Assembly: GCF_013122565.1 (NCBI RefSeq)
Contig: NZ_CP053258.1
Length of the DNA stretch: 64,000 bases
From: Escherichia coli
GTDB lineage: Bacteria; Pseudomonadota; Gammaproteobacteria; Enterobacterales; Enterobacteriaceae
Reading direction: 5' to 3' (one strand)
Within the stretch, counting starts at the first letter, position 1. Each line of letters opens with the position of its first letter. The position numbers were made by a program, and so were the translations under genes. The notes below the pieces were generated by a model. That model saw nothing but the letters and a program-made list of their open reading frames with translations, did no database searches and was not told the DNA's origin. Shown here piece after piece: positions 2,986 through 39,177 of the stretch.

Positions 2986-3005
2986 TTTATTTTCTCCAGA
3001 TAACA

Positions 3006-4394
<1,389 letters not shown>

Positions 4395-32872: not shown

Positions 32873-34114
<1,242 letters not shown>

Positions 34115-34143
34115 TTACTCGTTAATTAGTTTTGAATTAAAAA

Positions 34144-34165
34144 GGGCGCTTCGGCGCCCTTTTTG
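34144..34165 (+). terminator. Intrinsic terminator of the str operon after tufA
   Basis: Stem gggcgc/gcgccc with loop ttcg, followed by ttttt. Confidence 0.85.
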
Positions 34166-34405
34166 CATTTATTGATTGCATATCTTATTTGTAATATCAG
34201 AACGAACAAATCATTCATAATTAAAATATCATATTGAATTGATATTTTAATTATGAATATTTCTGTTTTTAAAATGCTTCATTTATCAGGCTTTTTTCTT
34301 ATTTTTAATGCTGTAATTCAATTCATATTGAAGGGTTCTCGTAAAATGTAAATAATTACTACGTAGGACTTTTGTTTTGTAGTTTTTACGTCACAAGGGA
34401 TTATA

Positions 34406-37099
34406 ATGAAATTAAATATATTTACTAAATCTATGATTGGTATGGGGCTGGTGTGTTCTGCTCTGCCTGCATTTGCTATTGAAGCATGGAATAACCAACA
34501 AGGTGGTAATAAATATCAGGTTATTTTCGATGGCAAAATTTATGAAAATGCCTGGTGGGTTTCTTCTACAAATTGCCCGGGAAAAGCGAAAGCAAATGAT
34601 GCAACTAACCCGTGGCGTTTAAAGCGTACCGCGACAGCTGCTGAAATTAGTCAGTTTGGCAATACACTTTCCTGCGAAAAGAGCGGTAGCTCATCGTCTT
34701 CAACTTCAAATACGCCAGCATCTAATACGCCGGCTAATGGCGGTTCGGCTACACCAGCACAGGGCACTGTTCCGTCTAATTCTTCTGTAGTTGCCTGGAA
34801 TAAACAGCAGGGCGGTCAGACCTGGTATGTCGTCTTTAATGGTGCGGTATATAAAAATGCCTGGTGGGTAGCCTCTTCTAACTGCCCGGGTGATGCGAAA
34901 GGCAATGATGCCAGCAACCCATGGCGTTATGTTCGTGCCGCTACGGCAACGGAAATCTCAGAAACCAGTAATCCACAGTCCTGTACTTCAGCACCACAGC
35001 CTGCACCGGATGTGAAACCGGCACCGGACGTTAAACCGGCTCCTGATGTTCAGCCAGCCCCGGCTGATAAGTCAAACGACAACTATGCTGTCGCAGCCTG
35101 GAAAGGTCAGGAAGGTTCTTCTACATGGTACGTTATCTACAACGGCGGCATTTATAAGAACGCCTGGTGGGTAGGCGCGGCAAATTGCCCAGGCGATGCG
35201 AAAGAAAACGATGCCAGCAACCCATGGCGTTATGTTCGCGCGGCAACGGCAACAGAAATCAGCCAGTATGGTAACCCAGGCTCCTGTTCCGTTAAGCCTG
35301 ATAATAATGGCGGTGCTGTGACTCCGGTTGATCCAACTCCGGAAACTCCGGTTACCCCAACTCCGGATAACAACGAGCCATCAACACCAGCGGATAGCGG
35401 TAACGATTACTCATTGCAAGCGTGGAGCGGCCAGGAAGGTAGCGAAATTTACCATGTTATTTTCAATGGTAATGTTTACAAGAATGCCTGGTGGGTTGGT
35501 TCTAAAGATTGCCCACGGGGTACCAGCGCTGAAAACTCCAATAACCCATGGCGTCTCGTGCGCACAGCTACCGCTGCGGAAATGAGTCAGTATGGTAACC
35601 CGACTACCTGTGAAATTGATAATGGCGGCGTCATTGTTGCGGATGGTTTCCAGGCCAGCAAAGCGTACAGCGCAAACAGCATCGTAGATTATAACGATGC
35701 ACATTATAAAACCTCTGTCGATCAAGACGCATGGGGCTTTGTCCCGGGCGGCGATAACCCGTGGAAGAAATACGAACCGGCGAAAGCATGGTCCGCTTCC
35801 ACCGTGTACTTGAAAGGTGATCGCGTTGTTGTTGATGGGCAGGCTTATGAAGCGCTGTTCTGGACGCAAAGTGACAACCCTGCTCTGGTTGCGAACCAAA
35901 ACGCCACCGGTAGCAATAGCCGCCCGTGGAAGCCGTTAGGTAAGGCTCAGAGCTATAGCAACGAAGAGCTGAATAATGCGCCGCAGTTTAATCCAGAAAC
36001 GCTTTATGCCAGTGATACGCTGATTCGTTTTAACGGTGAGAACTACATTTCTCAGAGTAAAGTGCAGAAAGTTTCCCCTTCTGACAGCAACCCGTGGCGT
36101 GTCTTTGTTGACTGGACCGGAACCAAAGAACGTGTAGGTACGCCGAAGAAAGCGTGGCCGAAACACGTTTATGCACCGTATGTCGACTTTACGCTGAATA
36201 CGATCCCGGATCTGGCTGCGCTGGCTAAGAATCATAACGTCAACCACTTCACGCTGGCGTTTGTGGTGAGTAAAGATGCGAACACCTGTCTGCCGACATG
36301 GGGTACCGCTTACGGTATGCAGAATTACGCTCAGTACAGCAAAATCAAAGCTCTGCGTGAGGCTGGCGGCGATGTGATGCTGTCTATCGGTGGTGCTAAC
36401 AACGCTCCGCTGGCTGCTTCCTGTAAGAACGTAGACGATCTGATGCAGCATTATTATGACATCGTTGATAACCTGAACCTCAAAGTCCTGGACTTCGATA
36501 TCGAAGGCACCTGGGTTGCGGATCAGGCATCTATTGAACGTCGTAACCTTGCTGTGAAGAAAGTGCAGGATAAATGGAAGTCAGAAGGCAAAGATATTGC
36601 TATCTGGTATACCTTGCCAATTCTGCCGACTGGCCTGACGCCGGAAGGGATGAATGTCCTGAGCGATGCCAAAGCGAAAGGTGTTGAGCTGGCGGGTGTG
36701 AACGTGATGACAATGGATTACGGTAACGCGATTTGTCAGTCTGCAAATACCGAAGGTCAGAACATCCACGGTAAGTGTGCTACGTCTGCGATTGCCAGCC
36801 TGCATGCGCAGTTGAAAGGCCTCTACGGCAATAAGAGCGATGCTGAAATTGACGCCATGATGGGTACCACGCCGATGGTTGGCGTGAACGACGTTCAGGG
36901 CGAGGTGTTCTATCTCTCTGATGCTCGTCTGGTCATGCAGGATGCGCAGAAGCGTAATCTCGGTATGGTTGGTATCTGGTCAATCGCGCGCGACCTGCCG
37001 GGCGGCACTAACCTGTCTCCGGAATTCCACGGTCTGACTAAAGAGCAGGCTCCGAAGTACGCATTTAGCGAAATCTTCGCGCCGTTTACTAAGCAATAA
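34406..37099 (+). CDS. chiA: Periplasmic endochitinase/lysozyme-like ChiA (GH18 catalytic domain with four N-terminal chitin-binding repeats)
   Basis: 897-aa ORF-track protein; signal peptide; four repeats of the AW(N/K)xQxGxxxYxVxFNGxxYKNAWWV...NPWR module; GH18 motif LDFDIEG. Confidence 0.95.
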   Translation: MKLNIFTKSMIGMGLVCSALPAFAIEAWNNQQGGNKYQVIFDGKIYENAWWVSSTNCPGKAKANDATNPWRLKRTATAAEISQFGNTLSCEKSGSSSSSTSNTPASNTPANGGSATPAQGTVPSNSSVVAWNKQQGGQTWYVVFNGAVYKNAWWVASSNCPGDAKGNDASNPWRYVRAATATEISETSNPQSCTSAPQPAPDVKPAPDVKPAPDVQPAPADKSNDNYAVAAWKGQEGSSTWYVIYNGGIYKNAWWVGAANCPGDAKENDASNPWRYVRAATATEISQYGNPGSCSVKPDNNGGAVTPVDPTPETPVTPTPDNNEPSTPADSGNDYSLQAWSGQEGSEIYHVIFNGNVYKNAWWVGSKDCPRGTSAENSNNPWRLVRTATAAEMSQYGNPTTCEIDNGGVIVADGFQASKAYSANSIVDYNDAHYKTSVDQDAWGFVPGGDNPWKKYEPAKAWSASTVYLKGDRVVVDGQAYEALFWTQSDNPALVANQNATGSNSRPWKPLGKAQSYSNEELNNAPQFNPETLYASDTLIRFNGENYISQSKVQKVSPSDSNPWRVFVDWTGTKERVGTPKKAWPKHVYAPYVDFTLNTIPDLAALAKNHNVNHFTLAFVVSKDANTCLPTWGTAYGMQNYAQYSKIKALREAGGDVMLSIGGANNAPLAASCKNVDDLMQHYYDIVDNLNLKVLDFDIEGTWVADQASIERRNLAVKKVQDKWKSEGKDIAIWYTLPILPTGLTPEGMNVLSDAKAKGVELAGVNVMTMDYGNAICQSANTEGQNIHGKCATSAIASLHAQLKGLYGNKSDAEIDAMMGTTPMVGVNDVQGEVFYLSDARLVMQDAQKRNLGMVGIWSIARDLPGGTNLSPEFHGLTKEQAPKYAFSEIFAPFTKQ
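35000..35071 (+). repeat. In-frame 18-bp tandem repeat encoding the Pro-rich linker (PAPDVK)x2-PAPDVQ-PAPADK within chiA
   Basis: Four consecutive 18-nt units read from sequence. Confidence 0.8.
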
Positions 37100-37106
37100 A
37101 TGTGTT

Positions 37107-37137
37107 GGCGATACCTTCCGGTATCGCCGCATTTTTT
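37107..37137 (+). terminator. Intrinsic terminator downstream of chiA
   Basis: 9-bp stem ggcgatacc/ggtatcgcc, loop ttcc, followed by gcatttttt. Confidence 0.85.
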
Positions 37138-37140
37138 GTC

Positions 37141-37173
37141 AATGGGCTACTTTTGGTAGCCCATTATTTTTAT
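37141..37173 (+). terminator. Second hairpin with T-run immediately after the chiA terminator (tandem terminator)
   Basis: 10-bp stem aatgggctac/gtagcccatt, loop ttttg, followed by atttttatt. Confidence 0.5.
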
Positions 37174-37267
37174 TCATATTTCTATTTTTTGCTTAAAAAA
37201 GAGTCTTTCCGTAATTGAAATAAGAACTATTTTCATTTATTTTTGAGGAAAGTATACGGGAGTCTCT

Positions 37268-37462
37268 ATGTACGTTTGTCTTTGTAATGGTATCAGCGAT
37301 AAAAAAATTCGTCAGGCTGTGCGCCAGTTTTCCCCCCACTCGTTCCAGCAATTAAAAAAATTTATTCCGGTCGGCAATCAGTGCGGTAAATGTATCCGGG
37401 CCGCGCGTGAAGTGATGGAGGATGAATTAATGCAGTTGCCGGAGTTTAAGGAGTCCGCATAA
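37268..37462 (+). CDS. bfd: Bacterioferritin-associated ferredoxin ([2Fe-2S])
   Basis: 64-aa ORF-track protein with CLC...CGKC cysteine pattern. Confidence 0.93.
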   Translation: MYVCLCNGISDKKIRQAVRQFSPHSFQQLKKFIPVGNQCGKCIRAAREVMEDELMQLPEFKESA

Positions 37463-37533
37463 ACGGAGTGTGTTTTTTGACTTACTCGTAAGCCGTTCTA
37501 CGCTTCAAAGAGTGGAAGCGAAGGAGTCAAAAA

Positions 37534-38010
37534 ATGAAAGGTGATACTAAAGTTATAAATTATCTCAACAAACTGTTGGGAAATGAGCTTGTCGCAATCA
37601 ATCAGTACTTTCTCCATGCCCGGATGTTTAAAAACTGGGGCCTCAAACGTCTCAATGATGTGGAGTATCATGAATCCATTGATGAGATGAAACATGCCGA
37701 TCGTTATATTGAGCGCATTCTTTTTCTGGAAGGTCTTCCAAACTTACAGGACCTGGGCAAACTGAACATTGGTGAAGATGTTGAGGAAATGCTGCGTTCT
37801 GATCTGGCACTTGAGCTGGATGGCGCGAAGAATTTGCGTGAGGCAATTGGTTATGCCGATAGCGTTCATGATTACGTCAGCCGCGATATGATGATAGAAA
37901 TTTTGCGCGATGAAGAAGGCCATATCGACTGGCTGGAAACGGAACTTGATCTGATTCAGAAGATGGGCCTGCAAAATTATCTGCAAGCACAGATCCGCGA
38001 AGAAGGTTGA
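37534..38010 (+). CDS. bfr: Bacterioferritin
   Basis: 158-aa ORF-track protein; SD aaggag. Confidence 0.97.
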
Positions 38011-38017
38011 GCCGTGT

Positions 38018-38037
38018 CGGGAGGGTGAACCCTCCCG
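38018..38037. other. Stem-loop between convergent bfr and gspO, adjacent to the gspO stop
   Basis: 8-bp stem cgggaggg/ccctcccg, loop tgaa; no U-tract on either strand. Confidence 0.45.
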
Positions 38038-38038
38038 G

Positions 38039-38716
38039 TTAATAAGAGATCCAGGCCAGATACCCCAGGTTTATCATGCTGCCGAGCGCAAGCCATGGGC
38101 CGAATGCAATAGTGGTTATAGTCCGGCGTTGCAGAAGTTGTGAAACGATGGCGTAACCAATGCCACCCAGCGAGGCAATCAGCAGTATCATTGGCAACGT
38201 TTGCCAGCCACACCACGCGCCTGCAGCGGCCAGTAGCTTGAAATCACCGTAGCCCAATCCCTCTTTGTGACAAACTAACCAGACGCCCCAGTAAACACAC
38301 CACAGCACCCCATAGCCAGCTACCGCGCCGTAAACCGCATCATGTAGATCAATTAATCCAGACTGCGCATTAAATACTAAGCCAAGCCAGAGCAGCGGTA
38401 AGGTGAGTTTGTCGGGCAGGAGCTGAGTGCGAAAATCAATAACACTGAGCGTGAGTGCGAAACAGAAATAGAGAAAGAGTGCGCCAGTCACTATGGGCGT
38501 GAAAGGTGCCAGGGCGCAGGCGATAGCAGCAGCAACGCAAAGTATCAGGGGCACTGTATCATGCCAGGCATATTTTTTTTGCCTGAAATGAACCAATACC
38601 TGGCGAAACGTTAACGCCGTTTTATCCTCCATAGGCGAGAGGTGATAGGCCATGGCATTAACAAAATAACCTGCAATAAAACCAATCAGAATGAAGAGCG
38701 GCAGTAGCATTGTCAT
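38039..38716 (-). CDS. gspO: Type II secretion prepilin peptidase (A24 family)
   Basis: 225-aa ORF-track polytopic membrane protein with prepilin-peptidase-like regions (VIDFRTQLLPD, GYGDFKL). Confidence 0.9.
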   Translation of the reverse strand: MTMLLPLFILIGFIAGYFVNAMAYHLSPMEDKTALTFRQVLVHFRQKKYAWHDTVPLILCVAAAIACALAPFTPIVTGALFLYFCFALTLSVIDFRTQLLPDKLTLPLLWLGLVFNAQSGLIDLHDAVYGAVAGYGVLWCVYWGVWLVCHKEGLGYGDFKLLAAAGAWCGWQTLPMILLIASLGGIGYAIVSQLLQRRTITTIAFGPWLALGSMINLGYLAWISY

Positions 38717-39177
38717 TATTGTTGCTCCCTGAAGGACAAATGCCTGAGGGTGATCTCTTCGTTTCCGGCAAGAGTAAACTGAAGGTCTTCAATAACAATA
38801 CCGTATGTTATCTGTACCTTAGTGAGCCAGTGGGAGACATTTTCGAGGGGAGCTGTGACAGGATGAATTGTCAGAGTATTGTCCGGGCCGTTTTCCAGCG
38901 TGATAGCCAAATTCTCACGTTTTGCTTCCTCGAGAAGGATATTTTTGATGGGCTGCGTAAGCGCAGGATGACCAAGTAAACCATGGGTGCTCGCTTGATC
39001 CTGCATCCATTTGATGTCCTTCTTAATTTTTTGCGCGTGGGACTGATGCTCTGCAATGTAGGTATCTATCGGTTTTATCACCCCAAGCCAACAAAAAACG
39101 CCGAGCGAGAGAACCGCCAGTGCCGCAACGATCTGTTTTTCCGATGTGGATTTTTCTGCCCACCATGATTTAATCAT
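38716..39177 (-). CDS. gspM: Type II secretion system protein M
   Basis: ORF-track frame 38716..39201; start placed at ATG 39177 (MIKSWW, 153 aa), preceded by AAGGAG and forming ATGA overlap with the gspL stop. Confidence 0.85.
   Translation of the reverse strand: MIKSWWAEKSTSEKQIVAALAVLSLGVFCWLGVIKPIDTYIAEHQSHAQKIKKDIKWMQDQASTHGLLGHPALTQPIKNILLEEAKRENLAITLENGPDNTLTIHPVTAPLENVSHWLTKVQITYGIVIEDLQFTLAGNEEITLRHLSFREQQ

Follow-up and report, generated by a model that had tools for sequence, protein, structure and literature searches.

A selected, conventional tandem of predicted intrinsic terminators at the end of Escherichia coli chiA

The locus analysed here lies within a 64-kb stretch of E. 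coli DNA (the window), in which the gene order is tufA–chiA–bfd–bfr–gspO, with gspO encoded on the minus strand. The tufA gene ends at position 34114, and its intrinsic terminator, AAAAAGGGCGC-TTCG-GCGCCCTTTTT (34138..34170, plus strand), lies 24 nt past the tufA stop codon and served as our comparator. According to the list of open reading frames, chiA occupies 34406..37099 on the plus strand, encodes a protein of 897 amino acids and terminates in a TAA codon at 37097-37099. RefSeq names the gene product 'bifunctional chitinase/lysozyme' in near-identical E. coli records, ChiA homologs match the Pfam families GH18 and CBM_5_12, and the gene has been described as H-NS-silenced (PMC5797941). 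The spacer between tufA and chiA (34166-34405) has a very high AT content and lacks a counterpart in the chiA-less allele described below, in keeping with a chiA promoter region bound by H-NS. Downstream of chiA, bfd (bacterioferritin-associated ferredoxin, 37268..37462, plus strand) is the first gene of a unit that continues with bfr (bacterioferritin, 37534..38010, plus strand). A promoter scan predicted a bfd promoter, TTGAAA-17 nt-TATTTT, at 37215..37243 on the plus strand, overlapping a Fur-box-like sequence (37216-37234) that matches at 11 of 19 positions in the window and at up to 15 of 19 positions in positional homologs from relatives. This block of promoter and Fur box is 85% identical between E. 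coli and Superficieibacter, and bfd is known to be Fur-repressed in E. coli (PMC4676285). Over the 701 bases from 36900 to 37600, the window shares 98-99% identity with chiA-positive E. coli chromosomes.

The 168-nt spacer between chiA and bfd contains two hairpins, H1 and H2, each followed by a T-run. The stop-proximal H1 (37102..37139, plus strand) was delineated by sequence inspection, a terminator scan and folding. Its stem as called by the tool (37106-37129) comprises 10 pairs, 6 of them G-C, and is built on the core arms GGCGATACC (37107-37115) and GGTATCGCC (37120-37128), which enclose the loop TTCC at 37116-37119. An optional extension adds four pairs, formed between 37102-37105 and 37129-37132, and the stem leads into the run TTTTTT (37132-37137), which belongs to the stretch TTTTTTGT (37132-37139). 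The second hairpin, H2 (37141..37174, plus strand), is formed by a perfect inverted repeat of 11 bp interrupted by 3 bp, its arms AATGGGCTACT (37141-37151) and GGTAGCCCATT (37155-37165) forming 11 pairs, 5 of them G-C, around the loop TTT. It is followed by the tail ATTTTTATT (37166-37174), which reads A-TTTTT-A-TT. Counted from the chiA stop codon, H1 starts at +7 (+3 for the extended stem) and H2 at +42. Since the two stems lie on the same strand and only 11 nt apart, they fall well within the ~100 nt used to define a tandem.

Both hairpins are considerably more stable than expected by chance. RNA folding yielded -18.8 kcal/mol for H1 (z = -5.2) and -16.2 kcal/mol for H2 (z = -5.3), and none of 200 dinucleotide shuffles matched the folding of H1, with the same result (0/200) for H2. 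The 86-nt block carrying both hairpins folded at -36.4 kcal/mol (z = -7.4). When strong terminator-like sites were defined as having 9 or more stem pairs and a T-run, the window contained 21 of them on its two strands together, with H1-H2 as the single same-strand tandem, whereas 60 dinucleotide shuffles contained 4.3 strong sites on average and not one tandem. The preliminary description of this DNA had reported two GC stem-loops, each with a T-run, between the chiA stop codon and bfd, and this observation is borne out, with z values of about -5. Each element combines a GC-rich stem-loop with a 3' U-rich tract and is located 3' of a gene on the coding strand, and in E. coli both look like independent intrinsic terminators. 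On the minus strand, no T-run follows either H1 or H2 and no convergent gene is found at the locus; we therefore treat the pair as a plus-strand feature. Neither stem is preceded by the 5' A-tract that would indicate a bidirectional terminator.

A search against Rfam returned no match at E <= 1 in the interval 37000-37300. Within the larger interval 33000-39000, the sole match at this cutoff was a sub-threshold hit to the Salmonella sRNA STnc40, located at the tufA terminator (34139-34197, minus strand; 27.7 bits vs a gathering score of 45; E = 0.12), which most likely reflects merely the terminator hairpin. Published 3' ends were also inspected. The K-12 Term-seq tables in the supplement of Adams et al. 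assign one 3' end to the bfr terminator (3466218) and another to that of tufA (3470093), with none listed in between (PMC7815308). As chiA is silent, missing K-12 ends at H1 and H2 are to be expected, and the tables are thus uninformative on the usage of the hairpins. The TERMITe supplements contain no entry for chiA or bfd, and a full-text literature search for the hairpin sequences found no paper.

We next consider how the hairpins are distributed among E. coli populations. The tufA-rpsJ interval exists as two alleles. Of 5426 complete genomes, 3160 have the hairpin block in a single copy and carry chiA together with the gsp operon, while 2256 genomes (42%) have neither and place bfd directly after tuf(A). 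In these chiA-less genomes, the tufA terminator is the only terminator upstream of bfd. A repeat or mobile-element origin of the hairpins is ruled out by the single copy of the 86-nt block per genome; one of the 3160 records with the chiA-bfd spacer is labelled plasmid and not chromosome. Among the chiA-positive genomes, 1097 have a hairpin block identical to that of the window, and 1900 share a K-12-like haplotype in which the substitution G37120A opens the loop-closing C-G pair of H1, changing its stability from -18.5 to -15.0 kcal/mol. When the two alleles are compared, similarity stops right past the tufA terminator and is back at the bfd promoter. An island boundary at the spacer was considered and ruled out, as the bfd-bfr genes themselves differ by ~20% between alleles, those of the chiA-less form being only ~80% identical to the window. 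Given these break points and the divergence of bfd-bfr, the chiA-bfd spacer is internal to a variable block, and the alleles differ over the entire tufA-to-gspO segment (34115-38716), bfd-bfr included, and not merely by an inserted chiA. Independently, a published pan-genome study found that the 'presence' of bfd and bfr co-varied with chiA and gsp, a pattern that reflects the same allele split (PMC11390585). Past bfr, the chiA-less allele carries a truncated prepilin-peptidase (gspO-like) gene. At most Enterobacteriaceae loci (L005-L050), whether chiA is present or absent, gspO-like ORFs or fragments occupy this position, with about 40-56% amino acid identity and often of partial length, which hints that the chiA-less tufA-bfd order arose by repeated loss and is not ancestral.

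Two E. coli records depart from the common arrangement in ways that touch the hairpins. In isolate 12 (NZ_CM194533.1, L098), the substitution C37147T converts a C-G pair of H2 into U.G, with pairing retained. The same record (locus positions 2990-3060, window 37097-37147) has the chiA stop codon TAA changed to AAA together with a 3-nt deletion, and its annotated chiA ORF continues through H1 into H2; these changes may reflect either genuine variation or a fault of the assembly. The engineered strain JME64 (NZ_CP042846.1, L097, 2960-3177) has genes for a feruloyl-CoA synthase, an aldehyde dehydrogenase and a hydratase-lyase in place of the chiA ORF, the exchange ending exactly at the stop codon, with both native hairpins retained downstream. 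Replacing chiA in engineered strains in this manner leaves the native hairpins to act on the inserted genes.

The comparison with Superficieibacter indicates that selection maintains the hairpins. Identity between this lineage and E. coli at the four-fold degenerate sites of the chiA, bfd and bfr genes is only 45-46%, which is near saturation, and the spacer outside the promoter aligns, with gaps, at 52-56% identity. Nevertheless, two hairpins are present in both, with their first stem bases at +7 and +42 in E. coli and at +5 and +36 in Superficieibacter (H1' and H2'). Comparing H2 with H2', six of eight pairs are identical and two have changed on both sides; for H1 and H1', four of nine pairs are identical, four show two-sided changes and one a one-sided change. 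No pair is broken in either comparison, and every pair is canonical. In a simulation of neutral decay that started from the E. coli sequence and applied 35-55% substitution, stability at the level of H1' was kept in at most 0.04% of trials and that of H2' in 4-6%, while both were kept in 0 of 5000. The persistence of the structures at a neutral identity of ~45%, with two-sided pair changes and none broken, argues that both H1 and H2 are under selection, the case being built on two independent lineages. H2 is homologous to H2'. The homology of H1 and H1' is not certain, as the register of the alignment is not unique and the stems can be aligned in another one with about as many identical pairs. 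The two first hairpins both have a stable stem (-18.5 and -20.2 kcal/mol), and differ in what follows: H1' runs into TTTCCCC, which is no canonical U-tract, whereas H2' retains TTTTCAATT. The conserved unit is thus better described as a hairpin plus a terminator than as two terminators, and termination may not be the conserved role of H1.

To place the tandem in a wider context, lineages in which tufA and bfd flank a chiA-type gene were collected by means of a Bfd scan and of ChiA homologs, Citrobacter cronae (L087) being left out owing to a run of N past chiA. Two strong hairpins at the chiA-bfd junction were seen only in E. coli and in one Superficieibacter lineage, represented by three loci (L051, L083, L084) whose identical spacers were counted as one. 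Most other junctions of a chiA-type gene with bfd, namely those of L085/86, L090, L091/92, L007, L008, L026 and L012/30, carry a single hairpin, as do chitinase homologs in unrelated contexts (L089, L093, L095). The three closest of the single-terminator lineages (L085, L090 and L091) have the same tufA-chiA-bfd-bfr-gspO order as the window and place their terminator at +42, +44 and +39 from the stop codon, respectively; in two of them the segment right past the stop is without significant structure, and in the third it forms a weak AT-rich hairpin. With its start at +42, H2 thus occupies the ordinary position of a chiA terminator, and H1 is, on this sampling of sequences, a clade-specific, stop-proximal extra that only the chiA lineage of E. 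coli and Superficieibacter possesses. In other words, the additional element of the tandem is the first hairpin and not the second. In other Enterobacteriaceae species where tufA adjoins bfd, the near-invariant tufA terminator is the only terminator-like site in 29 of 31 spacers, and the remaining two contain one additional weak match each. In the collection of ChiA homologs we also noticed a UniProt entry, CHI11_METAN ('Endochitinase 11' of Metarhizium anisopliae, P0013), that matches the C-terminal half of ChiA from E. coli at 97% identity and is probably a bacterial contaminant clone entered as a fungal protein.

Judged by these sequence comparisons, H1-H2 is a genuine, selected and conventional tandem of predicted terminators ending chiA, and belongs to a class that is already known. 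We consider it probable, at roughly three in four, that the two hairpins act as tandem Rho-independent signals, with H2 as the principal terminator and H1 as a stop-proximal element that serves either as an auxiliary terminator or as a hairpin protecting the 3' end. H2, followed by AUUUUUAUU, would be the positionally ancestral main terminator, and at +42 it should be beyond the reach of a ribosome sitting on the stop codon. H1, which in E. coli has its own U-run, may end transcription when no ribosome follows close behind. Under coupled transcription and translation, the terminating ribosome would cover the 5' arm of H1, allowing the polymerase to continue to H2. In transcripts ended at H2, H1 would stay in place as a second 3' stem and could slow 3' exonucleases. 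The net effect would be a robust ending of the chiA transcript ~40 nt before the bfd promoter and its Fur control, that is, a generic fail-safe. Within this scheme, termination at either hairpin and the stabilizing role of H1 are predicted from the layout of the locus, and the occlusion of H1 by the ribosome is proposed by analogy with a phage terminator.

The analogy concerns tR2, for which Li et al. varied the distance from a preceding stop codon in E. coli (PMC4824070). With the stop codon 5 bp upstream of the hairpin, less than 10% termination was measured, against about 90% at 28 bp, such that full function required a distance of more than ~27-30 nt, and the repression was gone once translation was uncoupled from transcription (PMC4824070). 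The distance effect was sequence-specific and was determined for this single terminator in a plasmid reporter (PMC4824070). Read against the tR2 distance series, H1 (3-7 nt from the stop) would fall inside the ribosome-repressed zone and H2 (42 nt) outside it. One could extend this reasoning to propose that H1 is a translation-sensing terminator, which ends only untranslated or uncoupled chiA transcripts and leaves translated ones to H2, the module having been conserved since E. coli- and Superficieibacter-type chiA split. We regard this extension as quite improbable. If true, the two 3' isoforms would report the translational status of chiA and may differ in stability or Hfq binding.

A different purpose for the doubling had been suggested by the preliminary description, in which the double insulation was taken to suggest that read-through from chiA into the iron-regulated bfd-bfr unit is specifically prevented. 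The general part of this claim can be retained, since hairpins that have been kept in evolution would lower read-through toward the Fur-repressed bfd promoter. The specific part is not supported, as tufA and bfd have a single terminator between them in 2256 of the 5426 complete E. coli genomes, and the same is true of 29 of 31 spacers from other species. The underlying idea, namely that the doubling is a dedicated insulator selected since chiA read-through would disturb bfd-bfr, draws on the selective maintenance of both hairpins, on their position ~40 nt upstream of a conserved promoter bearing a Fur box, and on the repression of bfd by Fur. We nonetheless find it unlikely: in the genomes just mentioned, one terminator is all that lies between bfd and tufA, a heavily transcribed gene, only one hairpin is present at other chiA-bfd junctions, and H1' of Superficieibacter is not a canonical terminator. 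Moreover, being silenced by H-NS, chiA should pose a weaker threat to bfd than tufA does.

Further readings of the hairpins concern the RNA itself or the underlying DNA. H1 may be a 3'-UTR stability element, a barrier to exonuclease trimming for transcripts ended at H2, with the U-run in E. coli being incidental. Such a role would fit the fact that both lineages have conserved a stable GC-rich stem (-18.5 and -20.2 kcal/mol) but not the U-tract, and also the position of H1, which at 3-7 nt past the stop is a poor one for termination. We hold it to be possible but doubtful, given that the extended stem of E. coli H1 leads straight into six U, the textbook layout of a terminator, and that the common K-12 haplotype (1900 genomes) tolerates a weakened H1 stem through G37120A. 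An Hfq-binding module consists of a U-rich stretch, a terminator hairpin and a poly-U tail. The succession of hairpin, U-rich spacer, hairpin and poly-U could accordingly be taken for the Hfq-binding 3' module of an sRNA derived from the chiA 3'-UTR, and the arrangement of UUUUUUGUC, H2 and UUUUUAUU does loosely resemble such a module, within a conserved structure. Against this stand the lack of an Rfam match, the absence of chiA and bfd from the EPEC RIL-seq supplementary tables, a spacer that is less U-rich in Superficieibacter, and the fact that no internal promoter or processing site is evident; a literature search likewise found no mention of such an RNA, be it a report of a chiA 3'-UTR sRNA or of a link to Hfq. 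Taken together, we judge an sRNA module to be very improbable. Finally, the inverted repeats could function in the DNA itself, as palindromes to which proteins bind (operator sites for bfd or chiA, for instance), and the perfect 11-bp repeat of H2 with its 3-bp spacer has the appropriate symmetry. This explanation is hardly credible, since E. coli and Superficieibacter have stems of different sequence in which pairing is kept, including G.U pairs that exist only in RNA, and T-runs past both repeats are confined to the transcribed strand.

The reading of H1-H2 as tandem terminators provides chiA with a well-founded 3'-end annotation in E. coli strains whose tufA-rpsJ interval is of the chiA-positive form, a gain of modest practical value that leaves current views on termination and iron regulation unchanged. 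The locus may be most useful as a natural test case for how the distance from a stop codon affects terminator use, with H1 predicted to lie in the shadow of the ribosome and H2 outside it, and with the chiA-less and single-terminator alleles as natural controls for this question.

Among known systems, rrnB T1-T2 is an example of tandem (fail-safe) intrinsic terminators. More generally, termination units of two hairpins have been described as the commonest hairpin cluster in bacteria (PMC8355165). H1-H2 resembles both in having serial GC-rich stem-loops, each with its own T-run, on the same strand and within ~70 nt of the stop codon. It differs from them in that H1 is unusually near the stop (3-7 nt) and in that its Superficieibacter counterpart is without a U-tract. 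With respect to the tR2 series, H2 likewise lies past the 27-30 nt needed for full efficiency; yet that series employed an engineered plasmid reporter and one phage terminator, whereas H1-H2 is a natural arrangement with a downstream back-up. The neighbouring tufA terminator shares with the chiA hairpins the canonical layout of a hairpin and T-run past a stop codon. In contrast to them, however, it is single, flanked by an A-tract and almost invariant across the Enterobacteriaceae, whereas the chiA hairpins have turned over in sequence.
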